In this document: in pieces, positions 11,364 to 57,657 of the stretch
Layout of the letters: the number at the start of each line of letters is the position of its first letter
Numbering within the stretch: position 1 is the first letter of the stretch
The notes under the pieces: model-generated
Database searches by the model: none
Told to the model about the DNA's origin: nothing
Seen by the model: the letters and a program-made list of their open reading frames with translations, nothing else
Translations under genes and position numbers: made by a program
NCBI GenBank assembly: GCA_001796515.1
Contig: MGMS01000010.1
Location: forward strand, 18,209 to 82,208
From: Chloroflexi bacterium RBG_13_51_36
GTDB taxonomy: Bacteria > Chloroflexota > Dehalococcoidia > GIF9 > AB-539-J10
Length of the DNA stretch: 64,000 nt
Direction: 5' to 3'

Positions 11364-12542
11364 TCAAGCGAAGCCGCGTTCTTTATGTTTTTCGGTGATG
11401 GTGTTAGCTAACTTGTCCAGAGCCTGGAAATCCTCTTCTCTGGGATATCCCTTGCTGAGCACGGGGGCCAGCACCTCCGCCTTAAGGTTGGGAATCATTC
11501 CTGCGAGCTGTTCCACAGCCTTGCTGCCCCAGCCATAGGAGCCAATGATGGAGACAAACTGGAGCTTGGGCCGCAAGGCGTTGGCCAGAAATGCCGCATA
11601 GGCAACGTTAGGATGTGGCCCGACCAGGACTGTAGGTGTACCGATGACCAGAGTGGCGGCGTCCACTAGGGCCATAGCCAGCTTTCCAATGTCAGTTGCC
11701 GCCAAATTGAATTGCTTTACCGTAACACCTCTGTCAGCCAGGGCTCCCACAAAATATTCCACCATTTTCTGGGTGCTGCCGTGCATCGAAATGTAGGGCA
11801 AGACCACAGTGTTTTTTGGTGAGCCGAATACCCAGCTTCGATAGGCCTCCAGGATAAACGAAGGTTTGTCATACATAGGGCCGTGGCTGGGGGCGATGAT
11901 GTCAATCTTGTAGCTGCTTAGCTTCTCCAGATGCTTCTCAATACTGGTGCGGAAAGGCATCATGATTTCGGCGAAGTATCTTTTGGCCGCTTCATAGACT
12001 TGTCCTTCATCAACTACATATAGGTCTGTAGTAGCCAGATGGGAGCCAAAAAGGTCGCAGGGGAAGAGTATCTTGTCTTCCCGCAAATACGTGAGCATTG
12101 TCTCAGGCCAGTGTACCCAGGGGGCGTGGATAAACTCCAGAGTCTTGTTCCCCAGAGACAGAGTCTCGCCATCGTTTACGGTGATAAACCTGTCCTCAGG
12201 GACAAGCAAGAGAGCCATGAGCAAATCCTGTCCTTTGGGTGTGGTCACCACCTTGGCTTTGGGATACTTCGCCAGAACACGGGGGATGCTGCCAGAGTGG
12301 TCTTGCTCGGCATGGTTGGCAATGACATAGTCGATGACAGGAACATCCTCAAGATTGGCCATGAGGACGTGAGTCATCGAGGGATTCGCAGTATCTATCA
12401 AAGCAACTTTCTCGCTGCCCTGCACCAGATAGGCGTTATAGCTTGTACCATCAGGAAGGGGTATCAAGGCGTCAAAGAGTCGCCTGTCCCAGTCAATAGC
12501 GCCTACCCAGTGAATATTTGTCTTTATTTCTCTCGCTTTCAT
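11364..12542 (-). CDS. fprA: Flavodiiron protein (FprA-type O2/NO reductase)
   Basis: N-terminal metallo-beta-lactamase-like diiron domain (HAEQDHSG) plus C-terminal flavodoxin domain. 392 aa. Confidence 0.9.
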   Translation of the reverse strand: MKAREIKTNIHWVGAIDWDRRLFDALIPLPDGTSYNAYLVQGSEKVALIDTANPSMTHVLMANLEDVPVIDYVIANHAEQDHSGSIPRVLAKYPKAKVVTTPKGQDLLMALLLVPEDRFITVNDGETLSLGNKTLEFIHAPWVHWPETMLTYLREDKILFPCDLFGSHLATTDLYVVDEGQVYEAAKRYFAEIMMPFRTSIEKHLEKLSSYKIDIIAPSHGPMYDKPSFILEAYRSWVFGSPKNTVVLPYISMHGSTQKMVEYFVGALADRGVTVKQFNLAATDIGKLAMALVDAATLVIGTPTVLVGPHPNVAYAAFLANALRPKLQFVSIIGSYGWGSKAVEQLAGMIPNLKAEVLAPVLSKGYPREEDFQALDKLANTITEKHKERGFA

Positions 12543-21995: not shown

Positions 21996-22200
21996 TTGAG
22001 TCGTGACCCTTGACCCCTGTCCCCTGACAGTTAGCCCCGTCTTGTTCCTCTCCCTTGATGGGAGAGGGGGGGTAAGGGGGCCCTCTCTGGCCGCCTTCTG
22101 ATGGCTGACAGCTGACTCTTGATCCCTGACCCCTGATCCCTGACCCCTGGTTGTTTCAGTGGCTTTATCCAGCCAGCTAAAGATATCCGCCATCCATCTC
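21996..22200. repeat. CT-rich low-complexity tract (CCCTGACCCCTGATCCCTGAC-type) upstream of recG
   Basis: Imperfect tandem CTGACCCCTGA units. The same motif family recurs at 31605-31640, 35458-35530, 40370-40445 and 41165-41390. Confidence 0.7.
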
Positions 22201-28869: not shown

Positions 28870-29390
28870 GTGTAATTGCGAGCCCTTTCTCTATTCCACT
28901 GTCATTGCGAGGAGCCCCGAGGAATCGGGGCGACGCGGCAATCTCATTTGCCGAATCCCAAACACGATTGTAGTGCGACCTTTCAAGGTCGTGCAATGCC
29001 GCCTTGGCACGAGGCCAAAGCCTCGCACTACATTTTTCGCTTTGATTTGTCATTTTGATATTGTTTAGGATTTGGTGCTTGGGATTTCCCTTCAGAGATC
29101 GCTTCGGCACTGTCGTGCCTGGCAAAGACACACCCCATGTCATTGCGAGGAGCCCCGATGAATCGGGGCGACGTGGCAATCTCATTTGCCAGATTCCAAA
29201 CACGATTGTAGTGCGACCTTTCAAGGTCGTGGAATGGCGCCTCGGTACGAGGCTAAAGCCTCGCACTACATTTTTCGCTTTGATTTGTCATTTTGATATT
29301 GTTTAGGATTTGGTGCTTGGGATTTCCCTTCAGGGATCGCTTCGTCGCCCGCGGCTCCTCGCAACGACACACTCCACGTTACGAAGGCGT
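28870..29390. repeat. Two tandem ~238-bp units (28901-29138 and 29139-29376), each headed by a TGTCATTGCGAG module and containing three hairpins
   Basis: The units are near-identical. Hairpins: GCCCCGAGGAATCGGGGC, GCGACCTTTCAAGGTCG(T)GC and CGAGGCCAAAGCCTCG. A degenerate head copy lies at 28870-28884 and an inverted partial copy at 29343-29375. Confidence 0.8.
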
Positions 29391-31403: not shown

Positions 31404-31791
31404 CACTTCGGCCATCATATCCTGCTCTGCCGGCATTCATGACAGGAGCACGAGCCTCCCGCATCATTGCGAGCCATTTCCCTACCTCAGTGACATTGCG
31501 AGCCCTTTCTCCCCCTCTTAAGATAAGAGGGGTCAGGGGAGTTATGAAGGAAGCCCCTGTCCCCTTGTCATTGCGAGCGGAGCGCGGCAATCTCGTTAGC
31601 TAAATTCTGACTCCTGAACTCTGACCACCGCCTGCTATCTGCTGCCGCTTTTGTCATTTGGATTTTGAGCTTGATTTGGCATTTGGGCTTTGTCATTTGC
31701 CATTACGGGTTCCCCTCTTAAGATCAGAGGGGCAAGGGGAGTTATGAAGACGAGACGGTACGCTGGCCACTGTCAATGGGCTTGACAAGCG

Positions 31792-31821
31792 CCTGGGGAA
31801 GGAGTATCTTCATTGTAGATA
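31792..31821 (+). promoter_or_regulatory. Putative promoter of mazEF (-35 TTGACA; weak -10 region), duplicated at 32848-32877
   Basis: CTTGACAAGCGCC...GTAGATACT lies about 45 bp upstream of the GGAGG RBS and the ATG. Confidence 0.3.
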
Positions 31822-31840
31822 CTGTGAATGGAGGTTCGAT

Positions 31841-32083
31841 ATGAGGACGCGTGTTCAGAAATGGGGTAACAGCCTCGCTTTGCGCATTCCGAAATCTTTC
31901 GCTGACGAAGTGGGGCTCCGGAAAGAAACATCCGTCGAACTATCGCTGGCAGACGGGAAAATCGTGGTCGCGCGGCTGACTAAGCCGGAGCTGACCCTCG
32001 AACAGCTTCTATCAAAGGTCACCAAAGACAACTTGCATCACGAGGTTGATACCGGTTCCGCCGTGGGGAACGAGACGTGGTAG
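31841..32083 (+). CDS. mazE: MazE/PemI-like antitoxin (AbrB/SpoVT fold), copy 1
   Basis: MRTRVQKWGNSLALRIPKSFADEVGL swapped-hairpin motif. 4-nt overlap with mazF. Confidence 0.85.
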   Translation: MRTRVQKWGNSLALRIPKSFADEVGLRKETSVELSLADGKIVVARLTKPELTLEQLLSKVTKDNLHHEVDTGSAVGNETW

Positions 32084-32424
32084 ACCGCCGTGCCTACGTG
32101 CCTCGTTGCGGAGATGTGGTGTGGATTAGCTTAAATCCGCAAGCAGGTCACGAACAGGCCGGGCGCCGGCCGGCCGTAGTGCTGTCGCCGCAAAGCTATA
32201 ACAGCAAGGTAGGACTGGCCATCCTTTGCCCGATAACCGGCCAGCCCAAAGGCTACCCTTTCGAGGTTCTTCTTCCCGCGGGCTTGCCGGTGGCAGGAGC
32301 GATATTATCTGACCAGGTTAAAAGTCTGGATTGGCGAGCCCGACGTGCCGAATTGATATGCGCTTTGCCGGCCGGGACGATATCGGAGGCGCTCCAGAAG
32401 CTGGGAACGTTGTTGTCGGAATAA
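32077..32424 (+). CDS. mazF: MazF/PemK-family endoribonuclease toxin, copy 1
   Basis: PRCGDVVWISLNPQAGHEQAGRRPAVVLS fits the PemK/MazF family. Confidence 0.85.
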   Translation: MVDRRAYVPRCGDVVWISLNPQAGHEQAGRRPAVVLSPQSYNSKVGLAILCPITGQPKGYPFEVLLPAGLPVAGAILSDQVKSLDWRARRAELICALPAGTISEALQKLGTLLSE

Positions 32425-32896
32425 GAGAACGTGCCTTGCCTGTCGGTATTTCCAACAGGAGCACGAGCCTCCCGGGTCATTGCGAGCCATTCCCTACCTC
32501 AGTGACATTGCGAGGCCTTTCTCCCCCTCTTAAGATAAGAGGGGTCAGGGGAGTTATGAAGGAAGCCCCTTCCCTTTGTCATTGCGAGCACTTTCTCTCC
32601 CCACTGTCATTGCGAGGAGCCCCGATTAATCGGGGCGACGCGGCAATCTCGTTAGCTAAATTCTGACTCCTGAACTCTGACCACCGCCTGCTATCTGCTG
32701 CCGCTTTTGTCATTTGGATTTTGAGCTTGATTTGGCATTTGGGCTTTGTCATTTGCCATTACGGGTTCCCCTCTTAAGATCAGAGGGGCAAGGGGAGTTA
32801 TGAAGACGAGACGGTACGCTGGCCACTGTCAATGGGCTTGACAAGCGCCTGGGGAAGGAGTATCTTCATTGTAGATACTGTGAATGGAGGTTCGAT

Positions 32897-33139
32897 ATGA
32901 GGACGCGTGTTCAGAAATGGGGTAACAGCCTCGCTTTGCGCATTCCGAAATCTTTCGCTGACGAAGTGGGGCTCCGGAAAGAAACATCCGTCGAACTATC
33001 GCTGGCAGACGGGAAAATCGTGGTCGCGCGGCTGACTAAGCCGGAGCTGACCCTCGAACAGCTTCTATCAAAGGTCACCAAAGACAACTTGCATCACGAG
33101 GTTGATACCGGTTCCGCCGTGGGGAACGAGACGTGGTAG
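32897..33139 (+). CDS. mazE: MazE-like antitoxin, copy 2 (identical)
   Basis: Translation identical to 31841-32083. Confidence 0.85.
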   Translation: MRTRVQKWGNSLALRIPKSFADEVGLRKETSVELSLADGKIVVARLTKPELTLEQLLSKVTKDNLHHEVDTGSAVGNETW

Positions 33140-33480
33140 ACCGCCGTGCCTACGTGCCTCGTTGCGGAGATGTGGTGTGGATTAGCTTAAATCCGCAAGC
33201 AGGTCACGAACAGGCCGGGCGCCGGCCGGCCGTAGTGCTGTCGCCGCAAAGCTATAACAGCAAGGTAGGACTGGCCATCCTTTGCCCGATAACCGGCCAG
33301 CCCAAAGGCTACCCTTTCGAGGTTCTTCTTCCCGCGGGCTTGCCGGTGGCAGGAGCGATATTATCTGACCAGGTTAAAAGTCTGGATTGGCGAGCCCGAC
33401 GTGCCGAATTGATATGCGCTTTGCCGGCCGGGACGATATCGGAGGCGCTCCAGAAGCTGGGAACGTTGTTGTCGGAATAA
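33133..33480 (+). CDS. mazF: MazF-family toxin, copy 2 (identical)
   Basis: Translation identical to 32077-32424. Confidence 0.85.
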   Translation: MVDRRAYVPRCGDVVWISLNPQAGHEQAGRRPAVVLSPQSYNSKVGLAILCPITGQPKGYPFEVLLPAGLPVAGAILSDQVKSLDWRARRAELICALPAGTISEALQKLGTLLSE

Positions 33481-34007
33481 GAGAACGTGCCTTGCCTGTC
33501 GGTATTTCCAACAGGAGCACGAGCCTCCCGGGTCATTGCGAGCCATTCCCTACCTCAGTGACATTGCGAGGCCTTTCTCCCCCTCTTAAGATAAGAGGGG
33601 TCAGGGGAGTTATGAAGGAAGCCCCTTCCCTTTGTCATTGCGAGCACTTTCTCTCCCCACTGTCATTGCGAGGAGCCCCGATTAATCGGGGCGACGCGGC
33701 AATCTCGTTAGCTAAATTCTGACTCCTGAACTCTGACCACCGCCTGCTATCTGCTGCCGCTTTTGTCATTTGGATTTTGAGCTTGATTTGGCATTTGGGC
33801 TTTGTCATTTGCCATTACGGCTTCCCCTCTTAAGGCATGTCCTGAGCGAAGTCGAAGGATCAGAGGGGTCAGGGGAGTTATGAAGGAAGCCCCAATCTGT
33901 CGAGGCGAGGGGCCTCAGACACTGCGGAGCCGGTTCCGAGCCCAGGTAAGAACACTGCGTCCGCCCGGACTTCCCGGCTGGATGCCCGGGCTTGAGCTGC
34001 GCCCGTC

Positions 34008-35387: not shown

Positions 35388-35530
35388 TTAACAGGAGCAC
35401 TAACCTCTCGTGTCATTGCGAGTCCCGGCTTGTCGGGGCGTGGCAATCTCATTAGCGCTGACTACTGACTCCTGACCCCTGACTGCTAGTCCCTAATCCC
35501 TAATCCCTAGTCCCTGACCCCTGCTCTTGC
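35388..35530. repeat. TTAACAGGAGCA...TGTCATTGCGAG-hairpin-GGCAATCTC module followed by a CT-rich CTGACCCCTGA tract
   Basis: Same module architecture as at 28853-28945 and 32455-32650. Confidence 0.6.
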
Positions 35531-35677
35531 CCGGAGCACCTGCTTGAAGCCCGAGGACATCGCACCTGCCTAGAGCCGAATCCTTGAAGAGCTACATAAA
35601 GGTTTAGTTCTTGTTGGTCACTACTGGTGGGTGTATAATCGAAGTACCACAAGAGTTGATTTCGGAGCAGCGATATT

Positions 35678-36865
35678 ATGCGAGTGCGGATAACCAATCA
35701 ACCAGCAGCAGAGCGAGATGAATGGCTCGGCTATAATCTCCGCTCTCTGCTTGAATCTAACAGAGAAAATGGGTTCGTTGTCTTTCGGTTTATGGTTGCC
35801 TTTGTTAGAACGAGTGGCTTGGTCCGAATAGCTGGTGCAATGGATTCATTTAGAGGAAATGGCGGACGGGTTGAGGCTGTGTTAGGTCTCGACAGCAGGG
35901 GTACTTCAAAGCAAGCTTTGCGCATGCTTCACGGATTAGCTCATGAAGTCTATGTATATCATGACACATCTCCAAACAGAACATTCCATCCTAAGTTATA
36001 CCTACTAGCAAATCCGGGAAACAATGCCATAGTGCTTATAGGATCCTCAAATCTGACTGCCGGTGGATTGTTCACTAATTACGAGATTACGGCGCAAATG
36101 GACCTTGATCTGGCTAATCCGGATGATTCTTATCTTTACAGGAGTATTGATCAGATATTCACTTTCTATAAAGACGCTTCCACAGGGTGTTCCTTGCGGT
36201 TATCTGAAGAGCTTATGAATCGATTGGAGAACGAAGAGCCAAGCCTTCTATTAGATGAAGAAACAGCTCTTGATGAGTCAGAGCTGACGGATGCAGGGGT
36301 TGTTGCTGAGGGACCTGGCCGTTACACAGCAGGGGGCTTGTTCAGTACACGTCGCTTTGCGCCGGCGCCCCAGCCAGATTTGCGTGCACCAAGGCACGGC
36401 AGAAGAGTTGCTGGGAGGCCAAGAGTCATCCGGAGAGGATTTTGGAAAGTACTGTCAAACTTCGATGTCAATCCTGGTAGTGCTCCGGGGCAGATAATAG
36501 TACCGATACGATTCGCACACTACTTCCCGCCAGTTACAATGACACACGGGCCAGACGCGGGCGGAAGAGGCAGGCAATGGGAGTGCTCTCTAAGTGTTTT
36601 GCTTAGTGGTCCGAGCGGAAATATTGTCGCTGATGATGCGAGGTTCATTATCTACGAGCCACATACGGGACACCCTCGCCCAAATACTGAATCCAGATTT
36701 ACTTTTCATAACAGTGCTATATTCAGCCTATTGTCCACCGGAGACATGCTGATTTTTCAGCGCCAGACGTCTCAGCATTGGTTCCGAGTTACCCTCGCTA
36801 GTCCGGGCAGTCGTCAGTATCAATTTCATAGGGGACGGACCAACCTGAGATTCGGTGAAATATAA
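35678..36865 (+). CDS. BfiI-like type IIS restriction endonuclease: PLD-family nuclease domain plus C-terminal B3-like DNA-binding domain
   Basis: The nuclease motif FHPKLY...(17)...GSSNLT places Glu 11 residues after the Asn, as in the BfiI active site. The C-terminal FWKVLSNFDVNPGSAPGQIIVPIRFAHYFP matches the B3 pseudobarrel motif K.L..SDV....L.IP..FA..YFP. The gene is low in GC. Confidence 0.6.
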   Translation: MRVRITNQPAAERDEWLGYNLRSLLESNRENGFVVFRFMVAFVRTSGLVRIAGAMDSFRGNGGRVEAVLGLDSRGTSKQALRMLHGLAHEVYVYHDTSPNRTFHPKLYLLANPGNNAIVLIGSSNLTAGGLFTNYEITAQMDLDLANPDDSYLYRSIDQIFTFYKDASTGCSLRLSEELMNRLENEEPSLLLDEETALDESELTDAGVVAEGPGRYTAGGLFSTRRFAPAPQPDLRAPRHGRRVAGRPRVIRRGFWKVLSNFDVNPGSAPGQIIVPIRFAHYFPPVTMTHGPDAGGRGRQWECSLSVLLSGPSGNIVADDARFIIYEPHTGHPRPNTESRFTFHNSAIFSLLSTGDMLIFQRQTSQHWFRVTLASPGSRQYQFHRGRTNLRFGEI

Positions 36866-36924
36866 CAACCAGCCTGCATTAGTACGAATTCTCTTCAGGA
36901 ATACGGATACGGGGCCAAGTCGAC

Positions 36925-38127
36925 CTAATTGGAGTACACCAAGACATAAGAGTGTTTAGGCACCGTCTTGTATCCTTTTATAAACGATGCTGTATACTTT
37001 CGTTGATCATATTGGTAACTGTCAAGTCTAGCAAATCCCGTTTTCCTGCATAATTCATCATAGACCGCCTTCATGGGAACCAATTCACCTTTGTATACCG
37101 AATCACCGATTACGATAGCCAGTATGCTCGAGGGCTTCAGAATTCGCTTAATGCTTTGTAGGCAAGAATTCATTAGATTTCGATAACTGTTCGGGTCTTC
37201 CGATTTATCGCAATGACGGTTACGTGAACCTATCTCGGCGCTTTGTACGATCTTGTGGTCGTAGCCTAGACAGAACATCCTTAGCTTGTGATAAAGATAG
37301 TAATCATAAGAATTCATATATGGCGGTGATGTAACGATGATATCGGCCACCGAATTCGGTACGCAGGCCAGAGAAGTCGCATCACACCGCATAATAGTTG
37401 CTGAGGAGCTAGCCAGTCGGCTGAATTCCAGAGAACGCGGAATCATATCGGTCAGCTTCTGGGCATATGCTCTCAACGCAAAGCCTGGTGGATGATTCTT
37501 ATCAACAGCCACCCAGCGTGTATCACTTTCCTGGCGGGATACCTTTACTATCACGGCCGAAAAGGCTGTGAGCGCAAGAGTACGCGATTGTGGCGATACT
37601 AACTGTTCAATGGCTTTTCTGACATATCCCAGTTCAAGGAGAACTTCGTTATCAAACCAATGGTCTCTGTTCTTGAAATTTGGAATAGAATCTGCCAAGT
37701 TTGAGTGCACGACATCTGAAATATTTAGCAGCCCCTCATTAACATCTAACAGCAGCTGGTTTAGCTCGTCAACGTGAGAACTTTCAAGTTTTGTGGTTTT
37801 CGCTTCACTTACCAGACAGGCAATAGGGTTCAGATCAGTACCAATTGACGGTCTCCCTTGAAGGCAAGCTTCGACAAGAGTTGTACCGCTACCACAGAAC
37901 GGGTCGACTACTAGTTGCCCAGGCATTGTGTATTTTTCAATTAGTGCCCGAGGGATGTGTGGTATAAACTTTGCAGGGTACGGGTGAAAATTGTGCGTGA
38001 GGTAATTCTTATCCCGCACCTTATCTAGGTCTATCCCCAGACCTCTTAGCCCTGGTTCTAAGAAGTCGTCAGTCTTCAACTGAAAATCGAGTTGCCTTGC
38101 TGTACTAAGTTGCGTTTGCCCTCTCAT
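36925..38127 (-). CDS. DNA methyltransferase (N4-cytosine or N6-adenine), SPPY type
   Basis: FHPYPAKF, then VVDPFCGSGTT (motif I), then IVTSPPYMNSYDY (motif IV). 400 aa. Confidence 0.85.
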   Translation of the reverse strand: MRGQTQLSTARQLDFQLKTDDFLEPGLRGLGIDLDKVRDKNYLTHNFHPYPAKFIPHIPRALIEKYTMPGQLVVDPFCGSGTTLVEACLQGRPSIGTDLNPIACLVSEAKTTKLESSHVDELNQLLLDVNEGLLNISDVVHSNLADSIPNFKNRDHWFDNEVLLELGYVRKAIEQLVSPQSRTLALTAFSAVIVKVSRQESDTRWVAVDKNHPPGFALRAYAQKLTDMIPRSLEFSRLASSSATIMRCDATSLACVPNSVADIIVTSPPYMNSYDYYLYHKLRMFCLGYDHKIVQSAEIGSRNRHCDKSEDPNSYRNLMNSCLQSIKRILKPSSILAIVIGDSVYKGELVPMKAVYDELCRKTGFARLDSYQYDQRKYTASFIKGYKTVPKHSYVLVYSN

Positions 38128-39070
38128 CTTTCTTGAAGGTCAGCAGATATGAGTGTCCTATATTCAAATAGAAATTTCGCGAAGGGTAACCCAGGCATAC
38201 TAGGGGGCGAAACCGAGTTTGATCATAAATCCTTATATCCCACAATACAAAACCTGCTGATTCTGCACATTCAATGATGTCACCATGGAAGTTGACATAC
38301 ACAATTCCTTCCTTCAGGTTCCGAAAATCCTTTACTACCCAAACTGCATATGAAGAGTCACGTAGAACACGGTAAGACGAAGCGAAAACTTCTTTGATGG
38401 AGCACAGACAGTTTTCATAGCTCATGTTGCTTAAATCTTCGCCTTTTGAAGAATAGGGCTGAGGATTTGCTACCGGATTGATGCTGGAGTGTTCTCTCCA
38501 TTTATACGCGAAGCTTCCCGAGATATTCTTCAGCAAGTTAGAATACGGAGGACTGGTTAGAATAAAGTCAACACTGCATGGAGCAACATGCAATTCCATA
38601 TTTCTCGCATCATCAATGATAACACGCACTTGATCTGAAGTGCATCCAGACGCTATTAGGTCTTTCTGAGCTATATTTGCGAATTCATCGTTTAATTCAA
38701 TACCAATTCCCCTCCTACCTAGCTGATAAGCCGCATCCAGAGTTGTACCTACGCCGACAAAAGGATCGAGTACTAGCTCTCCCTTCTTAGTGAATATTGA
38801 TATTTGTTGTAGCGCGAGCGATTCGGGAAAACAAGCTCCGTGTCGTCTCTGCTTGTCGGATCTATTATCTGGATAACTTTCGACACTCTTACTTGCTTTC
38901 GCCCATTCTGCCCCAGTTAGTTCGTTCAGTTCCCTGGGCCTTTTATCCTGTCCCTTGCCGAAGCATGCTTGGCACAGCGTTCGGGCTAGACGCTGAGTGC
39001 CTATTGGTGCTTCGGTGAGTCTACCACACGATTGGCACACGAATTTTGTCCTCCACCTAGTAACCATCAA
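38105..39070 (-). CDS. Second DNA methyltransferase, SPPY type, with N-terminal Cys4 zinc ribbon
   Basis: CQSCG...CQAC, then LVLDPFVGVGTT, then ILTSPPYSNLL. 321 aa. Confidence 0.85.
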   Translation of the reverse strand: MMVTRWRTKFVCQSCGRLTEAPIGTQRLARTLCQACFGKGQDKRPRELNELTGAEWAKASKSVESYPDNRSDKQRRHGACFPESLALQQISIFTKKGELVLDPFVGVGTTLDAAYQLGRRGIGIELNDEFANIAQKDLIASGCTSDQVRVIIDDARNMELHVAPCSVDFILTSPPYSNLLKNISGSFAYKWREHSSINPVANPQPYSSKGEDLSNMSYENCLCSIKEVFASSYRVLRDSSYAVWVVKDFRNLKEGIVYVNFHGDIIECAESAGFVLWDIRIYDQTRFRPLVCLGYPSRNFYLNIGHSYLLTFKKDERANAT

Positions 39071-39136
39071 ATCCCTCAGATCCTAGTATCTATTTGCATT
39101 CCAGCTTTAACCACCGAACATGTTAATTTGCCTTGG

Positions 39137-39340
39137 TCATAACAATAGCAGTTGCTCTCGCTCCAATATATCTTTTAAGACACCATTCAGTTTTTCCATT
39201 GCCAGTGGTGATGGTCGAGTCTTCCCCAGTTCCCATCTTTGGACGGTGTTAAGACAAACACCTAAGGATCTAGCCAACTGCTCCTGTGTCCACCCTTTGC
39301 GGTCCCGGCAGTGCTTGATCTTGGCTGCTAATTGATCCAC
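39137..39340 (-). CDS. XRE-family HTH regulator, possible controller (C) protein of the R-M system
   Basis: RKGWTQEQLARSLGVCLNTVQRWELGK helix-turn-helix. 67 aa, immediately upstream of the methyltransferase pair. Confidence 0.7.
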   Translation of the reverse strand: MDQLAAKIKHCRDRKGWTQEQLARSLGVCLNTVQRWELGKTRPSPLAMEKLNGVLKDILEREQLLLL

Positions 39341-39653
39341 GTTGATTATTCTATAGCATATGTTGCAGAAGATGTCAAGAGATTACCTTCTTAGGAGTGA
39401 AACCCTAGGGATGCTGTATCGATTAGGCCTGCTACGAATCAGGCGCTTTGTCTCCAGCATAGCGCTCTGACCGACCCCAGCATCACCTCTCGACGGAAGC
39501 TCAGTTCTTGCAACGGTTCATAGTGACAAAATACACACATCCCTGGGTCCAGTGCAATCTCGTAACACTGGAAACAGAATTCAGAACAATACTCAATTGG
39601 ACTACCAGTACTATTCTCCTATTGTCACGAATTTCAACACTGCATAGAATGAT

Positions 39654-40205
39654 TTGTTATCTCGAAATCGGGAGTTTAGGTTGAGCGTACTTGCAAGAGT
39701 TGTCAAGGCGGCTTGGGCAGAACTGAACAAGCCCAAAACATATGTCACAGGCGATGAATTCGAGCACTACGTCCGTGGATACTTGTTCACCAAGGAAGGA
39801 TATGACCTAGTGCATCAAACCCATGATTATGAAACCAACAGAGATGACTTCGTTGAAACCTCGAAGGAGCCGGACTTCAGATTCAGGTCAAGAAGAAGTG
39901 GCCGAGAATTTCTAGTCGAGGCGAAATACAGATCACGGCTTTATCAGGAGGCTGTCGAATGGTGCAAACCATATCAGCTAAATAGATACATGGCGATCGA
40001 TAAGGATATGCCGGTGCTTGTTGCCATCGGCTCAGGCGGACGTCCAAATTCGCCTGAGCATGTCTACATAGTGCCGGTAAGGCATATTAAGTACAGAAGG
40101 CTGTTTCCATCTTCCCTAAGGCATTACGAAGTGCCGACCAACCGATGTGTGAACGCAGACAGGATTTTATTGTCACTGCAAGGCTTGGGTGGGGAATCCC
40201 GCTGA
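39654..40205 (+). CDS. PD-(D/E)xK / NERD-like nuclease-fold protein
   Basis: DFRFRSRRSGREFLVEAKYRS fits the D...E-x-K motif pattern. 183 aa. The stop codon directly abuts repeat copy 1. Confidence 0.45.
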   Translation: MLSRNREFRLSVLARVVKAAWAELNKPKTYVTGDEFEHYVRGYLFTKEGYDLVHQTHDYETNRDDFVETSKEPDFRFRSRRSGREFLVEAKYRSRLYQEAVEWCKPYQLNRYMAIDKDMPVLVAIGSGGRPNSPEHVYIVPVRHIKYRRLFPSSLRHYEVPTNRCVNADRILLSLQGLGGESR

Positions 40206-40266
40206 ATTCCAGGGACGCCATACCAATCAGGCCTGCCACAAATCCGGTATTATGTCCCCAAAATAC
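40204..40266 (+). repeat. 63-bp TIR element, copy 1
   Basis: GAATTCCAGGGACGCCATACCAATCAGGCCTGCCACAAATCCGGTATTATGTCCCCAAAATAC. Confidence 0.85.
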
Positions 40267-40278
40267 TACTCGAAGTAA

Positions 40279-40370
40279 TGCTTCATTCACTCATTTTGGG
40301 GTGACTCTTCAGGTTTGCGATTATTTGAACAACAAATAGTCCGAGCATGATGAGCCCCCTCTCTAGTCCC
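40279..40370 (-). pseudogene. 3-prime remnant of a paralog of the membrane-protein gene at 42221-42661
   Basis: The reverse strand translates to ...LIMLGLFVVQIIANLKSHPKMSE*, nearly identical to the C-terminus of the 146 aa protein (LIMLGLFIVQIIANLKSHPKMSG). There is no upstream ORF body. Confidence 0.55.
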
Positions 40371-40445
40371 TGGTCTCCAGTCTCTAGTCCCTAGTCTCCA
40401 GTCTCTAGTCTCTAGTCTCTAGTCCCCAGCCCCTAGCCTCCGTTG
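40370..40445. repeat. CT-rich CTCTAGTCC/CTAGTCTC tract
   Basis: CTCTAGTCCCTGGTCTCCAGTCTCTAGTCCCTAGTCTCC... Confidence 0.7.
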
Positions 40446-40471: not shown

Positions 40472-40753
40472 TTGGTGCAGAGGACAGTCATGTTGACAGA
40501 ATACATCGAGGCGGCCATGAGGAAAGCTACGTATGAAAAGCTTGAAGATGGCACTTACTGTGGGAAGATTCCTGAGTGCCCTGGAACAATCGCCTTCAGC
40601 GAAACCCTTTATGAATGCCAAATCGAGCTGAGATCGGTTCTTGAAGGCTGGCTGCTGGTCAAGATAAGGCACGGTGATCACTTGCCCGTCATAGACGGAC
40701 TCGACCTGAACAAGGGCATACCAGCGCTTGAGGGAACCGTCGCCCATGGCTAA
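40472..40753 (+). CDS. hicB: HicB-family antitoxin
   Basis: YCGKIPECPGTIAFSETLYECQIELRSVLEGWL fits HicB. Its stop overlaps the hicA ATG (ATGGCTAA). Confidence 0.75.
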   Translation: MVQRTVMLTEYIEAAMRKATYEKLEDGTYCGKIPECPGTIAFSETLYECQIELRSVLEGWLLVKIRHGDHLPVIDGLDLNKGIPALEGTVAHG

Positions 40754-40979
40754 ATGGGCGCCGTGCAAACGCAGGGTTTTCATAAGGAAATTAGCCGGAT
40801 TGGGTTTTAGCCCACCTGAACCAGGTGGGCGTCATTTTTGTATGCGTTACGGGACACATACGCTGGCCATCCCCAGCAATGCGGAATATTCTGTGCCCCA
40901 ACTCAAGGCACTTCTAAAGGAAGTGGAGCACATGATCGTAAGGAAGATTTCCTTGCAGGAATGGCAGTCGCTTGATTGA
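40746..40979 (+). CDS. hicA: HicA-family toxin
   Basis: KRRVFIRKLAGLGF...GGRHFCMRYGTHTLAIPSN matches the HicA/YcfA pattern. Confidence 0.7.
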   Translation: MAKWAPCKRRVFIRKLAGLGFSPPEPGGRHFCMRYGTHTLAIPSNAEYSVPQLKALLKEVEHMIVRKISLQEWQSLD

Positions 40980-42220
40980 GAGATTCTGAGTTTTGGGGAA
41001 CCCCGCCCGCCGCAGGTTGCTCAGAGTGACATCCCTTTTTGTCTTTCTGAATGGATTGGAGCGGAGCCCCCGTGTCATTCTCAACAAAACGAAGCGGAGT
41101 GAAGAATTTCGATTCTTCGCTGTTCTCCCTCATAGGGTGAGAGGGAGTTAGAGGGAGTTACGAACTCTTCTACCGTCTACTGGCTCCGGACTACTCTCCA
41201 ATGTCTAATCTCCCTGTCTCCAGTCTCTTCAACGTATCTCCACTGTATCTCTACTAATCTCTAACTGTCTCCAATCTCCAGTGTCTCTAGCGTATCTCCG
41301 CTGTATCTCCACTAATCTCCCTGAATCTCTAGCAGTCTCTATTGTATCTCTAGCCCCTAGTCCCTGACCCCTGGCCCCTAACTGCGCCATTTCCCCCTTG
41401 TTCGAATAAGGAATTCATGCTAATCTCTCCTTGGAACTCGTGTGCTACCCTGACAAATCAAACCCCGCGGGCGCGGTTTCTCAGAACCTGACTGTAAACC
41501 CAACACGGGTTAGGAGGAAGCGCGGTGGCCAGAAAGGCAACCGGAATGCCCGTAAACATGGCTTCTATTCCGGTACCCTTAGCCCTGCCGAAACATCCCA
41601 ACTGTGGAACATTACCAATCTGGAAGGCGTTGACCCTGAAATAGCGCTCATTCGAACCCCTGTGTCATTCTGAATGAAGCGAAACGGAATGAAAAATCTC
41701 TGCAGATTCTTGGTTGTTCTCCCTCTTAGAGCCTGCCCTGAGCTTGCCGAAGGGGTAAGAGGGAGTCAGACCTGCCTGCCGAACAAGTCCTTTGGCAGGC
41801 GGGGAGAGTTACGAACTCTTCCACCGACTCCCGCCTCCCCGTGGTCTTCATTTGTCATGCGGATTTTGGCATCTGGACTTGGTTTGTCATTTGGGCCTCC
41901 CTGCGTCACTCCGCCAACCCCCACCGCTCGCAAATATGAAGGGCAAACCGACGAAACGAATCGTGTGTATTTTAAGGGTTAAATGTGCCCGAGGTAATCG
42001 CCCTACGTATGAAAAACATCTGTTGAACTCCAGAAAAAATAGCCATTTTTACAGAACGAATCATCCCGGCTTTCCTCATGCTCTTCCCCCCTCTGACAAG
42101 GAGGGAAGGGTGTCATTTGGGCTTTGGCACTTGAGCTTTATCTGCCATTTGTGTTGTCTTCTAGCTTCAACTTAAACGTAAACTGTGCTGCGGCGTATTA
42201 TGGTTGGAGGGGTGCCTCCT
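40980..42220. repeat. 1.2 kb gene-poor, repeat-dense region
   Basis: Paired modules at 41040-41200 and 41655-41840 (TGTCATTCTsAA...GAAGCG...TTCTCCCTC..AGAGGGAG..GTTACGAACTCTTC). A ~230-bp CT-rich tract at 41165-41390 has an internal ~65-bp tandem duplication. A second copy of the 40279-40370 repeat starts at 42226. Confidence 0.6.
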
Positions 42221-42708: not shown

Positions 42709-42772
42709 GAATTCCACGGACACCGTACCAGTCAGGCCCACTACAAATCAGGTACTCGGTCCTCGGAATGCC
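42709..42772 (+). repeat. 63-bp TIR element, copy 2
   Basis: GAATTCCACGGACACCGTACCAGTCAGGCCCACTACAAATCAGGTACTCGGTCCTCGGAATGCC. Confidence 0.8.
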
Positions 42773-43479: not shown

Positions 43480-43640
43480 TTAATAATAGCACTGGAAGGA
43501 ATAGGTGGCAATCTCTTAGCCCCGCCGAGATTGCTTCGTCGCCTTTGGCTCCTCGCAAAGACATCGGGGAGATTGCGTAGCTTGTTCCGAAGCGCCAGCG
43601 AGGAATCTCGTTCCTCGCAATGACAAAGAAAGGTGTCACT
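43480..43640. repeat. Reverse-orientation copies of the TGTCATTGCGAG family (CCTCGCAATGACA)
   Basis: GGCTCCTCGCAAAGACA and TTCCTCGCAATGACAAAG. Lies between hicB and rpoD. Confidence 0.5.
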
Positions 43641-45365: not shown

Positions 45366-45428
45366 GAATTTCGGGGACACCATACCGGTCAGGTCTGTTA
45401 CAAATCAGGTACTATTTCCCCAGAATGC
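45366..45428 (+). repeat. 63-bp TIR element, copy 3
   Basis: GAATTTCGGGGACACCATACCGGTCAGGTCTGTTACAAATCAGGTACTATTTCCCCAGAATGC. Confidence 0.8.
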
Positions 45429-47688: not shown

Positions 47689-47751
47689 GAATTTCAGGAG
47701 GACGATGCTAATCAGACCTGCTACAAATCAGGTGTTATGCCCCCGGAATAC
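47689..47751 (+). repeat. 63-bp TIR element, copy 5
   Basis: GAATTTCAGGAGGACGATGCTAATCAGACCTGCTACAAATCAGGTGTTATGCCCCCGGAATAC. Confidence 0.8.
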
Positions 47752-47785
47752 TAAGTAAGGATGCCTGGCCGGCAAAAAATTGGAC

Positions 47786-49751: not shown

Positions 49752-49814
49752 GAATTCCAGGGACAACATATCAATCGGCCCGCTGTAAATCAGGCATTAC
49801 GCCCCCCGAATACC
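49752..49814 (+). repeat. 63-bp TIR element, copy 7
   Basis: GAATTCCAGGGACAACATATCAATCGGCCCGCTGTAAATCAGGCATTACGCCCCCCGAATACC. Confidence 0.8.
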
Positions 49815-49991
49815 TGGCACATGATTTAATGGCAAGGTCATCGAGGTACGGGGTATCCGGTGGATGTGACTATCAAGGCCAATGTTGTTCTCGTAGTTTA
49901 GAAGCGATATAATCGGTCACACCAGCGAGGAAGAACCAACACCCCTTGTTGCTGCGGAACAGTGTGTCTCTATCATTGAGAGGAGAGGCGA

Positions 49992-50552: not shown

Positions 50553-50616
50553 GAATTGCAGGGGCACAATACCAATCAGGCCTGCTGCAAATCAAGTGTT
50601 GTGTCCGCATAATAGC
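50553..50616 (+). repeat. 63-bp TIR element, copy 8
   Basis: GAATTGCAGGGGCACAATACCAATCAGGCCTGCTGCAAATCAAGTGTTGTGTCCGCATAATAGC. Confidence 0.8.
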
Positions 50617-52888: not shown

Positions 52889-53530
52889 ATGAAAATAGTA
52901 ATCATCGGAGCAAGCGGGCAGATTGGAGCATTCATTCGGGACGAGGCACTGGCGCGAGGGCACCAGGTGACTGCCATCGTGCGTCATCCTGAGAAGATAA
53001 CTGTGCAGGACCCTGGTTTGCGTGTCGTGAAAGCGGACATTCTCAAGGATGAGGTCAATGAACTGGTGAAAGGTCATGATGCGGTCATAAGTGCCTACAA
53101 TCCCGGCTGGAGCAATCCCGACATGTACAACGAGCAAATCGAGGGTTACAAAAGGATTATCAGCGGTGTCAAGAAGTCGGGAATCAAAAAACTACTGGTC
53201 GTCGGTGGGGCGGGAAGTCTGGAGGTCGCTCCTGGCGTACAGGTCCTGGACACGGCGAGCTTCCCGGAGCAGGTGAAGAAAGGAGTGCTGGCGACCAGAG
53301 AGGTACTTTACATGCTCAGGAAAGAAAAGGAACTTGAGTGGACATTCTTGAGCCCGCCAAGCTCAATCAAGCCGGGAGAACGGACGGGGCATTACCGGGT
53401 CGGGAAAGACCAGCTCCTTAAGGACGAGAAGGGCGAAAGCAAAATCTCCACGCCGGACTACGCTGTTGCCATGCTCGATGAACTGGAGAACCCGAAGCAC
53501 GTTCGCGAACGCTTCACTGTCGCCTACTGA
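52889..53530 (+). CDS. NAD(P)H-binding NmrA/atypical-SDR-like protein
   Basis: MKIVIIGASGQIGAFI Rossmann motif. 213 aa. Confidence 0.8.
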   Translation: MKIVIIGASGQIGAFIRDEALARGHQVTAIVRHPEKITVQDPGLRVVKADILKDEVNELVKGHDAVISAYNPGWSNPDMYNEQIEGYKRIISGVKKSGIKKLLVVGGAGSLEVAPGVQVLDTASFPEQVKKGVLATREVLYMLRKEKELEWTFLSPPSSIKPGERTGHYRVGKDQLLKDEKGESKISTPDYAVAMLDELENPKHVRERFTVAY

Positions 53531-53591
53531 ACTCCAGAGGCACTATACCAATCAGACGTGCCACAAGTCCTGCATTATGTCCCAAAATACC
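53529..53591 (+). repeat. 63-bp TIR element, copy 10
   Basis: GAACTCCAGAGGCACTATACCAATCAGACGTGCCACAAGTCCTGCATTATGTCCCAAAATACC. It begins inside the TGA stop of the upstream gene. Confidence 0.8.
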
Positions 53592-53605: not shown

Positions 53606-54337
53606 TTAATATCTCAGGCTTGCCAACAGTTTGAATTCCTGCTGTGAGCGATTTTCAGTTTTCTCTTTAAAGGGGAAAGTGGCATCATATTGCGCAAATT
53701 CATTCTCATGGACCGCGAAACCAGCGCTCTCAATAAATCTTCCCGGCATATTGTTTAACACACCCTTTTTCAGCTCCAGTACCTGCAATGCTACCGCAAA
53801 TTTGGCGTCGGAGGTTCTGATATCGTATTTTTCAGCGCATCTAAATCCAAGGCGGCTATAATATCTTGGGTCTCCGTAAATACAGATGGCGGAATACCCC
53901 ATATTCTTCGCAAGGTTAATCGTATGATTAATCAGTGTGCTGCCAATGCCTTGTTTTTGAAATGCCGGTAGAACGCTTACGGGGCCAAAACCTATTACCT
54001 CTTTTTCCTCACCCCGCTGCATTTTGATAATACCGCGACTATAGACAATCTGTCCGACGATCAAGCCTTCTTTCTCCGCAACAAAGTCAAGTTCCGGAAT
54101 GAAATCGCTACTTTTTCTCAGATTGTGAATAATAATATGTTCGTTGCATCCAGGGACATAAAGATTCCAAAAAGCTTCACGTATCAGTTGCTCAACAGCC
54201 CTGTAATCTTTTCCCCCTTCGTTTCTTATGGTTAGATTGATACTGGACATCATTGATAGTATAACCCGCTGCAAAGCTGCAGTACAGGAAAAGTAATATC
54301 TATGCCCCACACCAGCATTGGGCACAATACCAATCAA
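53606..54337 (-). CDS. GNAT family N-acetyltransferase
   Basis: QKQGIGSTLINHTINLAK acetyl-CoA binding region. 243 aa. Confidence 0.8.
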   Translation of the reverse strand: MIGIVPNAGVGHRYYFSCTAALQRVILSMMSSINLTIRNEGGKDYRAVEQLIREAFWNLYVPGCNEHIIIHNLRKSSDFIPELDFVAEKEGLIVGQIVYSRGIIKMQRGEEKEVIGFGPVSVLPAFQKQGIGSTLINHTINLAKNMGYSAICIYGDPRYYSRLGFRCAEKYDIRTSDAKFAVALQVLELKKGVLNNMPGRFIESAGFAVHENEFAQYDATFPFKEKTENRSQQEFKLLASLRY

Positions 54338-54374
54338 GCTGACTGCAAATCAGGTATTGTCTCCACGGGATAGG
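54312..54374 (+). repeat. 63-bp TIR element, copy 11
   Basis: CCAGCATTGGGCACAATACCAATCAAGCTGACTGCAAATCAGGTATTGTCTCCACGGGATAGG. Confidence 0.75.
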
Positions 54375-55591: not shown

Positions 55592-57637
55592 ATGTGTAAG
55601 AGGAACAGCCTGTTCGTGGCCAACAAAGGGTTGTTGCTTGCTCTGACAACCATCCTGATTGTGGCCTTATTCCTGGGCATTGCGGGAAATCCGAAAAGCT
55701 ATGCGGCTGAAACCGAAGAACTGTATTTCTCTATACTCCACACCAATGACATGCATTCCGAACTCATACCTCATTCGCCGGCAGTAGATTACCGCCCGGG
55801 AGAAGAAAATGCTGCTATAGGAGGATTCGCCCGGCTGGCTACCGCCGTGGACGAAATCCGGGAGAACAAAATGAAGGAAGGTGAACCGGTGCTTCTTCTT
55901 GATGCCGGTGACTTCCTGGGAGGTGCTCCTTTCGCCTGGCTGGCCCTCAATGGTTCTGCAGCAGAACTTACCGTCATGCAGGAGATGAGATACGACGCTG
56001 TAGCCATCGGCAATCATGAGTACGATTATGGCGCTGATGTTCTGGCGCAGTATCTTATGCAGGCAGGATACCCCGAAGCCCACGAGAAAACACTGGTGCT
56101 GGCCTCCAATACAGAGGCGCCATCGGACCATCCGCTGGCTACCCAGGGTCTGTACAGGGAGACCGGAATGTTTGAGCTGGGAAATGGCCTGAAAGTGGGA
56201 GTCTTCAGCCTTATAGGTAAAGACGCCATCCTGGCAATGGGCGATAGCGGGGACATGCAGTTCCTGGACCAGCACGAGACGGCTCTCCAAATGGTAGATG
56301 AGCTGGACGAACATGGCGCCGACGTCATCGTGGCCCTAAGTCACTGCGGTGTGGACGAGGACAAGGAACTGGCGCAAGAGGTCCCGGGGATCGATGTCAT
56401 TGTGGGCGGCCACTCTCATACCGCACTGTTTGAGCCGGTCTTACAGGGCACCACAGTCATTGTCCAGGCTGGTTCCCTGGGAACGTACCTGGGGCAACTG
56501 GAACTGGCGTACGACTCCAACACCGGCGAAGTGCGGGTACGCAACGAAGAGAATGGCAGCCCCTTCCTTGTTCCCATTGATGGCAGCTTTGCCGGCGACC
56601 CGGAAATCGATGCCCTGGTCCAGGAATATGTTCTCCGCTTGGACGCCTACATCGAACAAATGACCGACGGCAAATTCGACGATATCATGGCCACAATAGC
56701 CAGGTCTGACTCTGTCCTGTCCAGCCTTCCGTTCTTTAGTGAGACTGCGCTGGGCAACTTCGTTACGGATGCCATGCGCTTTGTTGGCCAGGAATCTACC
56801 GGCGAGAGAGTTGACATAGCAGGCCAGGCTAACGGCAACATACGCAGTAGTGTCTTTCCCGGCACCACGGAACACTCTGCGGGAAACATTTCTTTCTACG
56901 AAATCGTCGAAGCTACAGGTGTGGGACGGGGACTCGACGGCCGCCCGGGCTGCCCAATTGCGTCTGTTTATCTCACCGGCGAGGAAGTGCGTCGTGTACT
57001 GGAAATAACCGTATTGTTGCAGAAGTTTATGGGAGATTCTTATTTCCTGCATTTCTCGGGCTTGCGGTACAGCTACAACCCCGCCAATGCTGTGCTCCTG
57101 ACTGTGCCTTTCGTGAACCTGCCTATCCCCACGACCCGTGCGGTTACCGGTGCCGAGCTTTACACAGGGGATGGGATTCAGCCTGCAAGCAACGAAGAGT
57201 ACGTCGCCCTGAAGCGTGGAGACGAAGAGTTGTACCACCTGGTCACCGACGCCTACCTCCTGCTCTTCCTCCCTCTAGTGACAGATATCCTGCCTCAGCT
57301 GGAAATAGTCCCTAAGAACGCCGATGGAGAGCCGGTGCCGCGGGACAGAATGGACGAACTGATAATACGTCATTCCGACGGAAGAGAGCTCAAGGTGTGG
57401 GAAGCAGTGCTGATGTACGCGGCGGCCCAGCTACATGGAGGGGACGGGATACCGCAGATACCCGATTATTACGCAGCTGTTGCCGGCCGCATCACCAAAG
57501 TCTGGACATTCCCTCTGATAGGGTGGCTTCTCTTGATACTGGCGGCTATTGTGGCTGGCATAATATACCTGGCCTTGCGCAGGAGAAGGCGCAGGATTTT
57601 CAGGGACACCATGCCAATCAGGTCTGCCACAAACTAG
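55592..57637 (+). CDS. 5-prime-nucleotidase / UshA-like metallophosphoesterase, with signal peptide and C-terminal TM anchor
   Basis: SILHTNDMHSE, GNHEYDYG, GGHSH metallophosphatase motifs. The C-terminal TM plus RRRRRR, the last 13 codons and the stop all lie inside repeat copy 12. Confidence 0.85.
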   Translation: MCKRNSLFVANKGLLLALTTILIVALFLGIAGNPKSYAAETEELYFSILHTNDMHSELIPHSPAVDYRPGEENAAIGGFARLATAVDEIRENKMKEGEPVLLLDAGDFLGGAPFAWLALNGSAAELTVMQEMRYDAVAIGNHEYDYGADVLAQYLMQAGYPEAHEKTLVLASNTEAPSDHPLATQGLYRETGMFELGNGLKVGVFSLIGKDAILAMGDSGDMQFLDQHETALQMVDELDEHGADVIVALSHCGVDEDKELAQEVPGIDVIVGGHSHTALFEPVLQGTTVIVQAGSLGTYLGQLELAYDSNTGEVRVRNEENGSPFLVPIDGSFAGDPEIDALVQEYVLRLDAYIEQMTDGKFDDIMATIARSDSVLSSLPFFSETALGNFVTDAMRFVGQESTGERVDIAGQANGNIRSSVFPGTTEHSAGNISFYEIVEATGVGRGLDGRPGCPIASVYLTGEEVRRVLEITVLLQKFMGDSYFLHFSGLRYSYNPANAVLLTVPFVNLPIPTTRAVTGAELYTGDGIQPASNEEYVALKRGDEELYHLVTDAYLLLFLPLVTDILPQLEIVPKNADGEPVPRDRMDELIIRHSDGRELKVWEAVLMYAAAQLHGGDGIPQIPDYYAAVAGRITKVWTFPLIGWLLLILAAIVAGIIYLALRRRRRRIFRDTMPIRSATN

Positions 57638-57657
57638 GGATTATCTTCCGTAATACC
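57595..57657 (+). repeat. 63-bp TIR element, copy 12
   Basis: GATTTTCAGGGACACCATGCCAATCAGGTCTGCCACAAACTAGGGATTATCTTCCGTAATACC. Confidence 0.8.

Follow-up and report, generated by a model that had tools for sequence, protein, structure and literature searches.

What kind of system is carried by the low-GC island in a stretch of contig MGMS01000010.1 from Chloroflexi bacterium RBG_13_51_36, and how did it come to be there? In the present study, the whole 64,000-nucleotide stretch of DNA (hereafter, the window) was analyzed, and the results indicate that positions 35539-39379 very probably represent a type IIS restriction-modification (R-M) module of the BfiI kind, which comprises four genes and is horizontally mobile. 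The genes encode a 395-residue nuclease (R), which is 100% identical to 'hypothetical protein A2Z77_04570' of Chloroflexi bacterium RBG_13_51_36, two amino-methyltransferases (M1 and M2) and a small helix-turn-helix (HTH) protein (C). An initial annotation, made by reading the sequence, had proposed a five-gene R-M island that also included a PD-(D/E)xK protein, here called ORF183, and all five open reading frames (ORFs) were recovered where it had placed them (Table 1). The locus was compared with relatives designated L001-L003 (Chloroflexota), L004/5 (Pyrinomonadaceae, Acidobacteriota), L006 (an unassigned metagenome contig), L007 (Verrucomicrobiota) and L013 (a metagenome), in which the counterparts of R are 81%, 37%, 35%, 37% and 30% identical, respectively.

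The predicted nuclease R

First, the sequence of R contains the core of a phospholipase D (PLD)-type nuclease. The motifs H104-P-K106, G122-S-S-N125 and E136, the last of these 11 residues past N125, were observed together with FWK at residue 255, and H104, K106, G122, S123, N125, G129, G130, N134 and E136 are invariant in a 45-sequence alignment of the R family. In Pfam, R matched PF13091 with 28.6 bits (cut-off 27), and a match to the NgoFVII PLD family remained below threshold. The top sequence match in the Protein Data Bank (PDB) was BfiI (2c1l, E 9e-4; residues 21-143 of R against 23-143), and a profile of the 45-member family matched BfiI with an E value of 2e-10. The alignment of R with BfiI runs without gaps across GSxN...E, at residues 122-143 of BfiI, and N125 and E136 coincide with N125 and E136 of BfiI, confirming the HxK...GSxN...(11)...E core with the Asn-Glu spacing of BfiI that the initial annotation had described. 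The active site of BfiI comprises H105/K107/N125/E136, and that of NgoAVII comprises H104/K106/D124/E137 (PMC4267654). Because H104/K106/N125/E136 are invariant in the R family and NgoAVII has D124/E137, the active site of R, as read from the sequence, is of the BfiI type (Asn, +11 to Glu).

Second, an AlphaFold2 model of R, built on the family alignment, revealed two defined domains with a low-confidence joint. The mean predicted local distance difference test score (pLDDT) was 88, with values below 50 at residues 199-217 and 240-249 and mostly above 90 for residues 251-395. In a Foldseek comparison of this model with the PDB, BfiI 2c1l was the first match (E 4.4e-15), with both domains aligned, followed by the PLD domain of SauUSI, R.NgoAVII (4rct, E 1.8e-6), Nuc, NucT and Zucchini. 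For the C-terminal half, which models as a B3-like pseudobarrel, Foldseek also listed B3 domains from the Arabidopsis protein VAL1 (E 2e-4 and 1e-3; target-normalised template modelling (TM) scores of 0.72 and 0.68). The B3-like motif that had been read from the sequence around FWK is therefore upheld by the predicted structure and not by sequence searches, in which the Pfam B3 model gave no match to the C-terminal domain. The structural comparison with BfiI that had been suggested as a check thus returned BfiI as the top fold, and the outcome that would have spoken against the proposal, namely a non-nuclease PLD protein without a B3 fold, was not what the model showed.

The segment that joins the two domains is acidic, with 10 Asp/Glu in the 30 residues from 186 to 215, where the pLDDT is low, and F222 within it is nearly invariant in the family alignment. 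An acidic linker is also present in BfiI, where it has been proposed to serve as an auto-inhibitory DNA mimic (PMC4267654); the linker of R comprises about 65 residues, compared with about 25 in BfiI.

A search of the full database with the profile of the R family retrieved, at E <= 1e-30, the representatives of 1366 clusters formed at 50% identity, and nearly all of the best 150 representatives match the profile essentially from end to end, with few truncated. In view of this number, the R family is considered a large clade and, as far as can be told, an uncharacterised one; a review from 2014 mentioned 'over 40 putative' PLD enzymes in REBASE (PMC4081073). Full-length relatives of R were not found in curated plasmid and phage collections, in which five plasmids and no phages gave matches to the PLD domain only. 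Two other forms of the nuclease were also observed. A more distant relative (L014, 3276-6236) carries another C-terminal domain and adjoins a single Eco57I-type methyltransferase, and a PLD version of ~283 residues is fused to DpnI_C, a Dam-replacing winged-helix domain, and is likely methyl-directed. The PLD nuclease family shuffles its specificity domains, as R-M modularity would predict.

Methyltransferases and gene linkage

Third, two adjacent methyltransferases with SPPY motifs are encoded on the strand opposite to R, and R is convergent with this pair, as the initial annotation had stated. In M1, motif I for AdoMet (DPFCGSGT at 75) lies ahead of motif IV (SPPY at 267), with a long insert between them, and this motif order appears alpha-like. 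In M2, motif I (DPFVGVGT) is located at 102 and SPPY at 173. The true start of M2 is likely the ATG at 39067, which has GAGGGA in front, and the end of M2 overlaps the start of M1 by 23 nucleotides. The N-terminus of M2 (residues 1-40, 38975-39067) contains a CxxC-x17-CxxC zinc ribbon with weak matches to PF23477 and TIGR04272; this ribbon is kept in L004 (7563-7700) and absent from the L006 homologue, and it may be an additional DNA-binding or autoregulatory module. The SPP(Y/F) motif is a hallmark of N4-cytosine methyltransferases (PMC3425538), and type IIS enzymes usually come with two methyltransferases, one for each strand (PMC4081073). In M1 and M2, the SPPY motif suggests N4-methylcytosine (m4C) as the product, and the presence of two enzymes would fit an asymmetric type IIS site.

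The same partners were observed beyond the window, at all loci of full-length relatives that were inspected. R adjoins one M2-like and one M1-like PF01555 methyltransferase in L001-L003, L004/5, L006, L007 and L013, and the genes are arranged either convergently, as in the window, or in the collinear order R-C-M2-M1; M1 and M2 are thus conserved partners of R in other phyla. Based on tblastn, M2 is the most conserved partner (identities of 93/69/64/56%), followed by M1 (85/47/47/40%) and R (81/37/37/35%).

The putative regulator C and the promoters

Fourth, a small Xre-type HTH protein is a conserved member of the system. The C protein is 97% identical in L001-L003, 61% in L004/5 and 52% in L007, and is always encoded directly upstream of M2 (tblastn); in L001-L003, the gene had been shortened by the gene caller and was found using tblastn. 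Thus, C is present in three of the four lineages tested. The C promoter in the window reads TTGACA-17-TATAGA(AT). Because the -10 element ends 8-10 nucleotides before the GTG start codon, without a Shine-Dalgarno sequence, the C mRNA is probably leaderless or nearly so. Moreover, in the aligned upstream regions of four systems, palindromes of the GACATATG type overlap the C promoter. These palindromes take the form ACATATGT-TACG-ACATATGT in L001, an 18-bp perfect palindrome, CATATGATATATCATATG, in L004, and ATATGTCAA ... TTGACATAT in L007. In the window, the promoter-proximal box ACATATGC alone is intact, and the first, promoter-distal ACATATGT repeat is degenerate or lost compared with L001.

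A C-box was not seen upstream of R. The promoter-like site and the GGAG of R are unchanged in L001 despite the divergence of the block around them, and this site was missed by a consensus scan because its -35 element matches the consensus at three of six positions.

The initial annotation had named the HTH protein as a controller candidate. A conserved HTH partner is indeed present, but it heads M2-M1 and never precedes R, which is either convergent with C or located upstream of it. Like the C proteins of type II R-M systems, C is a small HTH protein of the Xre type encoded within the R-M module; palindromes overlap its promoter, and its transcript is probably leaderless. However, the genes of canonical C proteins precede the endonuclease gene and are co-transcribed with it, whereas the C gene described herein is co-oriented with the methyltransferase genes, even in the collinear R-C-M2-M1 arrangement. 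In addition, the putative GACATATG operator half-site is particular to this C family, unlike those of other type II C proteins. Taken together, the sequence features suggest that C is a C-like autoregulator of the C-M2-M1 operon that would bind these operators.

Extent and probable horizontal acquisition of the module

In a blastn comparison with L001, L002 and L003, the window segment 35539-39379 matched as a single block of 3842 bp that is 86.6% identical. At one end, this block extends 139 bp beyond the start codon of R in the upstream direction, and at the other it stops exactly at the -35 hexamer that precedes C; its flanks differ, with a CHAT protease in L001-L003 and a gene of the major facilitator superfamily (MFS) in the window. 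Based on this homology, the travelling unit is 35539-39379 and not the 35678-40205 interval originally delimited.

The base composition of the region is also distinctive. The GC content is 0.463 over 4.5 kb, compared with 0.518 for the window, as the initial annotation had noted by eye; no other stretch of this size in the 64 kb is poorer in GC, and only 0.7% of segments of equal size reach such a low value. Relative to the left flank (0.55-0.59), the drop is clear, and relative to the right flank (about 0.50), it is weak. At third codon positions, the GC content (GC3) is 0.41-0.45 in R, M1 and M2, compared with 0.66 in the adjacent MFS gene. Orthologues of this MFS gene (77-81% identity) were identified in two related genomes, L016 and L017, one of which is a complete 1.76-Mb chromosome, and R, M1, M2 and C are absent within 10 kb of them. 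The GC and GC3 contents, the occurrence of the same block within other flanks and its absence near the MFS orthologues uphold the earlier proposal, and horizontal acquisition of the module is well supported. Homologues of the module adjoin an integrase and Prim-Pol in L004, or insertion sequence (IS) elements and a Kiwa system in L006.

The repeats that had been thought to bracket the island are present at 35388-35530 and 40204-40445, but they were rejected as island ends, as each is a member of a separate dispersed family. The island ends carry no direct or inverted repeats that match as a pair; the similarity between left and right consists only of a 69%-identical heptamer array, and the comparative boundaries at 35539 and 39379 do not fall on the proposed right bracket. 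The island looked bracketed because heptamer arrays lie at 35458 and 40360.

Discussion

Herein, we propose that this cassette works in the manner of BfiI, which forms a homodimer with a single active site, binds two asymmetric sites and cleaves at a fixed offset, independently of Mg2+, through a covalent intermediate (PMC4081073). By analogy, we infer that two R subunits would dimerise via their PLD domains, forming one composite active site from H104/K106/N125/E136 of each chain, and that the B3-like domains would each recognise a single copy of an asymmetric sequence. One strand and then the other would be cut a short, fixed distance away from this sequence, without Mg2+, through a covalent phospho-histidine intermediate, and the acidic linker would probably shield the surface of the nuclease before it binds specific DNA. 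M1 and M2, which appear to be translationally coupled, would each probably place m4C on one strand of the asymmetric site, thereby protecting the host DNA. The C protein would probably bind the GACATATG-type palindromes over its own promoter, resulting in autoregulated methyltransferase expression, and R, which is convergent with M1, would be transcribed from a conserved promoter of its own.

The closest known enzymes are BfiI and BmrI (type IIS, ACTGGG 5/4), which, like R, have a PLD H-x-K...N...(11)...E active site and, as predicted for R, a C-terminal B3-like pseudobarrel. Their genes have no ATPase partner and are accompanied by separate methyltransferases; at the R locus, likewise, methyltransferase genes but no ATPase gene adjoin R. 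Two m4C methyltransferases accompany BfiI. The differences are that the host of R is an uncultivated Chloroflexota metagenome-assembled genome (MAG), compared with Bacillus for BfiI, that the C-terminal domain of R is unrecognisable by sequence, and that the HTH gene of the R module heads the methyltransferase operon. The base contacts of BfiI are not transferable to R because R shares 16% identity with the C-terminal domain of BfiI, and the recognition sequence and cleavage offset of R most likely differ from those of BfiI. ACTGGG and CCCAGT occur 7 and 21 times, respectively, in the 64 kb, which is uninformative on the specificity of R. The cassette is a fresh relative of a known enzyme kind and no new kind of system.

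Several observations weigh against this assignment. The identity between R and BfiI is about 16%, and the sequence similarity is limited to the PLD domain. The R model leaves undefined how its two domains are oriented towards each other, which accounts for a predicted TM score (pTM) of 0.58. When a profile restricted to the C-terminal domain was used, nothing was retrieved from the PDB at E <= 10, and the B3 assignment comes from one AlphaFold2 model and Foldseek, since the sequence searches were empty. For the methyltransferases, M.CbeI is an m4C enzyme with DPPY, and SPPY is thus a hallmark and not proof (PMC3425538). An intrinsic terminator was searched for between the convergent R and M1 genes, and none was found. 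In addition, C starts with GTG (39338-39340) in the window and with ATG in L001 (compared region, 11643-11783). This start codon and the degenerate first operator repeat suggest that regulation in the window copy may be weakened or retuned. Finally, the available structures leave the difference between stand-alone BfiI and ATPase-dependent NgoAVII unexplained (PMC4267654), and R might therefore have a distant or unlinked partner.

The last point bears on the possibility that R resembles NgoAVII and CglI, being inactive alone and depending on ATP hydrolysis and on an ATPase of the DEAD family (N/H protein). The fold of R.NgoAVII (4rct) is a significant match to R, and R.NgoAVII and R.CglI have the same PLD and B3-like two-domain architecture, with a dimeric single active site; structure alone therefore leaves room for this explanation. 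However, a helicase or ATPase gene does not adjoin R in the window or in five other lineages (six loci), and R looks, on this basis, like a stand-alone enzyme similar to BfiI and not like NgoAVII. Moreover, the NgoAVII and CglI systems each consist of three genes and have a single methyltransferase (PMC4267653), whereas two are present here; the third active-site residue of R is Asn, followed after 11 residues by Glu as in BfiI, compared with Asp124 and E137 in NgoAVII; and BfiI far outscores NgoAVII by sequence, profile and fold. We therefore consider dependence on an ATPase improbable.

Similarly improbable is a decayed or silenced system, in which the genes are intact and the window copy is not normally expressed or regulated, resulting, for example, in a modification-only phenotype. 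The GTG start of C on a probably leaderless mRNA and the degenerate first operator repeat speak for this reading; however, the four ORFs are full length with intact catalytic motifs, and the promoter-like region of R is identical to that of L001. The least probable explanation, by a slight difference, is that R is no restriction enzyme but either belongs to, or is left over from, a different defence system with a PLD protein (DISARM DrmC, PbeA or a SauUSI-like type IV enzyme) or is a non-specific Nuc-like nuclease, with M1 and M2 as orphans: the SauUSI PLD domain is the best PDB profile match (E 1.2e-13), and PADLOC gave weak PLD-domain matches to PbeA, DrmC, ZacB and mREase_IV (E 1e-5 to 1e-2), but all of these matches span only about residues 20-180 of R, the partner genes (DrmA/B, helicase domains) are absent from the locus, a classical R-M system fits both the conserved DNA-binding domain at the C-terminus and the strict association with two methyltransferases across phyla, and a methylation-dependent nuclease beside two active methyltransferases would presumably be self-toxic. 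The DISARM, Pbe and type IV assignments were rejected, as these matches do not extend beyond the PLD domain and the locus lacks the partner genes.

The type IIS R-M module of the BfiI kind therefore remains the preferred interpretation. A more specific proposal, to which we give an even chance, is that R is the first member to be looked at of a large clade, wholly uncharacterised so far, of PLD/B3 type IIS enzymes that act without a partner, with a specificity and offset other than ACTGGG 5/4, a long acidic autoinhibitory linker and an unusual control circuit comprising a leaderless C-like repressor at the head of the methyltransferase operon and a zinc-ribbon methyltransferase.

Neighboring genes and dispersed repeats

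The fifth ORF of the proposed island, ORF183, carries the PD-(D/E)xK signature and the predicted fold that had been attributed to it, but is an unrelated multicopy neighbour. The residues E35, P73-D74 and E89-x-K91 are invariant among its homologues (n=27). Since these homologues comprise 166 residues, the true start is probably located about 11-17 codons downstream. The AlphaFold2 model (pLDDT 80.6) matched RecU/PrfA, archaeal Hjc and the SPARDA nuclease domain in Foldseek with E values of about 1e-3 and TM scores of 0.4-0.6. Thus, ORF183 shares the E...PD...ExK motif and a matching predicted fold with the RecU/Hjc nucleases, but the matches are weak and, unlike these nucleases, ORF183 belongs to a small, lineage-restricted and multicopy family. 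This family comprises 44 proteins, typically of 166 residues, has no Pfam model and includes a paralogue of ORF183 (71% identity) encoded elsewhere in this genome; its members occur in contexts without R-M genes, and no linkage to R-M was observed elsewhere. Indeed, tblastn gave no match to ORF183 in L001-L008, and the gene lies outside the 35539-39379 block.

Downstream of ORF183, a HicB-family antitoxin gene (UPF0150-like; 40472-40753, + strand; PF21748, E 2e-28) is overlapped by an 83-residue ORF (40728-40979, + strand) that is HicA-like by position and eye and has no Pfam match; these two genes probably form a toxin-antitoxin pair. On the left side, a tandem duplication of ~1.06 kb, 96% identical, was observed at 31442-33834 (units 31442-32778 and 32455-33834). 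The duplicated unit carries a PemK/MazF toxin gene (PF02452, E 6e-25; ORFs 32077-32424 and 33133-33480) and a small upstream ORF. Because nothing separates the abhydrolase gene from the MFS gene in the related MAG L015, the 2.5-kb MazF segment is considered an insertion in the window genome.

Three families of dispersed repeats were observed. Of the GTCATTGCGAG element, 10 copies lie on the + strand, from 28.9 to 35.4 kb, and another lies on the - strand at 43614. The intergenic heptamer arrays comprise 4-9 copies and resemble the STRR (short tandemly repeated repetitive) heptamer repeats of cyanobacteria. The third family is an intergenic element of ~65 nucleotides, GAATTCCAGGGACACCATACCAATTAGGCCTACTACAAATCAGGTATTATGTCCCCAGAATACC, with 11-12 copies in the window, all on the + strand between 39.4 and 60.7 kb and none in 1-39 kb. 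Its first copy is degenerate (nhmmer E 1.2e-6) and abuts the right end of the module, as does the first copy listed for L001 (Table 1). In L001, copies of this element separate small same-strand ORFs directly past the R-M module, and in the window, the copy at 40203 begins within the stop codon of ORF183, and the C-terminal extensions of some ORF183 homologues appear to enter the element. An attC-like cassette boundary of an integron was considered and rejected, as copies also follow housekeeping and metabolic genes (a sigma-70 gene, hydrolases). The element has no Rfam match, and its hairpin is weak, with little energetic or covariation support, which also counts against an attC-like role. 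Among the ORFs scanned at 18-28 kb and 45-64 kb, with 1-18 kb lying outside the scan, no integrase or transposase was found, and the lack of an integrase was a further ground for rejecting an attC-like boundary. The element is a candidate for a repetitive extragenic palindromic (REP)-like or miniature inverted-repeat transposable element (MITE)-like sequence, or for a protein-binding site. The region around the module is a variable patch, to which the duplicated MazF segment and the HicB-family gene belong.

Table 1. Positions of the R-M module, its parts and the surrounding features (window coordinates unless L001 is named)
Feature	Positions	Strand	Basis or detail
Co-inherited R-M module (R, M1, M2, C and both promoter regions)	35539-39379		blastn block
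R, predicted BfiI-like PLD/B3 restriction endonuclease, 395 residues	35678-36865	+	Pfam, PDB sequence match, AlphaFold2/Foldseek
R, PLD domain	residues 1-185, 35678-36232	+
R, acidic low-confidence linker	about residues 186-250, 36233-36427	+
R, predicted B3-like pseudobarrel	residues 251-395, 36428-36862	+	predicted structure
R, promoter-like site	35611-35639	+	TTGTTG-17-TATAAT; read from sequence, putative function
R, Shine-Dalgarno GGAG	35663-35666	+
M1, amino-methyltransferase, 400 residues	36925-38127	-	PF01555 E 3e-22; PADLOC MTase_II E 5e-56, full length
M2, amino-methyltransferase, 321 residues	38105-39070	-	PF01555 E 5.5e-28
C, Xre-type HTH protein, 67 residues, GTG start, heads C-M2-M1 operon	39137-39340	-	HTH_3 E 3e-11
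C-M2-M1 promoter/operator region	39348-39378	-	TTGACA 39378-39373, ACATATGC 39363-39356, TATAGAAT 39355-39348
ORF183, PD-(D/E)xK (RecU/Hjc-like) protein, 183 residues	39654-40205	+	motif and predicted fold
GTCATTGCGAG family	28900-29379; copies 31567, 32476-32606, 33532-33662, 35412		includes 238-bp tandem pair 28900-29344
Heptamer arrays (CTGACCC / CTAATCC / TCTCTAG types, 4-9 copies)	22112-22149, 35458-35523, 40360-40441, 41326-41381		intergenic
65-nucleotide element, window	39401-39459, 40203-40267, 42709-42772, 45366-45428, 47689-47752, 49752-49815, 50553-50614, 53528-53589, 54320-54371, 57596-57657, 60660-60712	+
65-nucleotide element, L001	11741-11803, 12210, 13012, 13252, 14488, 14726

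Conclusions

The present results do not overturn current understanding, and they assign a predicted function to a protein that is unannotated ('hypothetical protein') in the public record. Among the stand-alone PLD restriction enzymes, BfiI and BmrI, which represent one specificity, are the only well-studied examples, and such enzymes are prized for cutting without Mg2+ and for a nuclease domain that can be re-targeted. The cassette described herein and its metagenomic clade might therefore be a source of metal-independent type IIS specificities and of B3-like DNA-reading domains, which would also be relevant to the modelling of plant B3 transcription factors. A regulator wired to the methyltransferases instead of the nuclease is mildly unusual. 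Moreover, the locus provides a clean example of what is very probably an R-M module of four genes that moves from one Chloroflexota genome to another and also between phyla.

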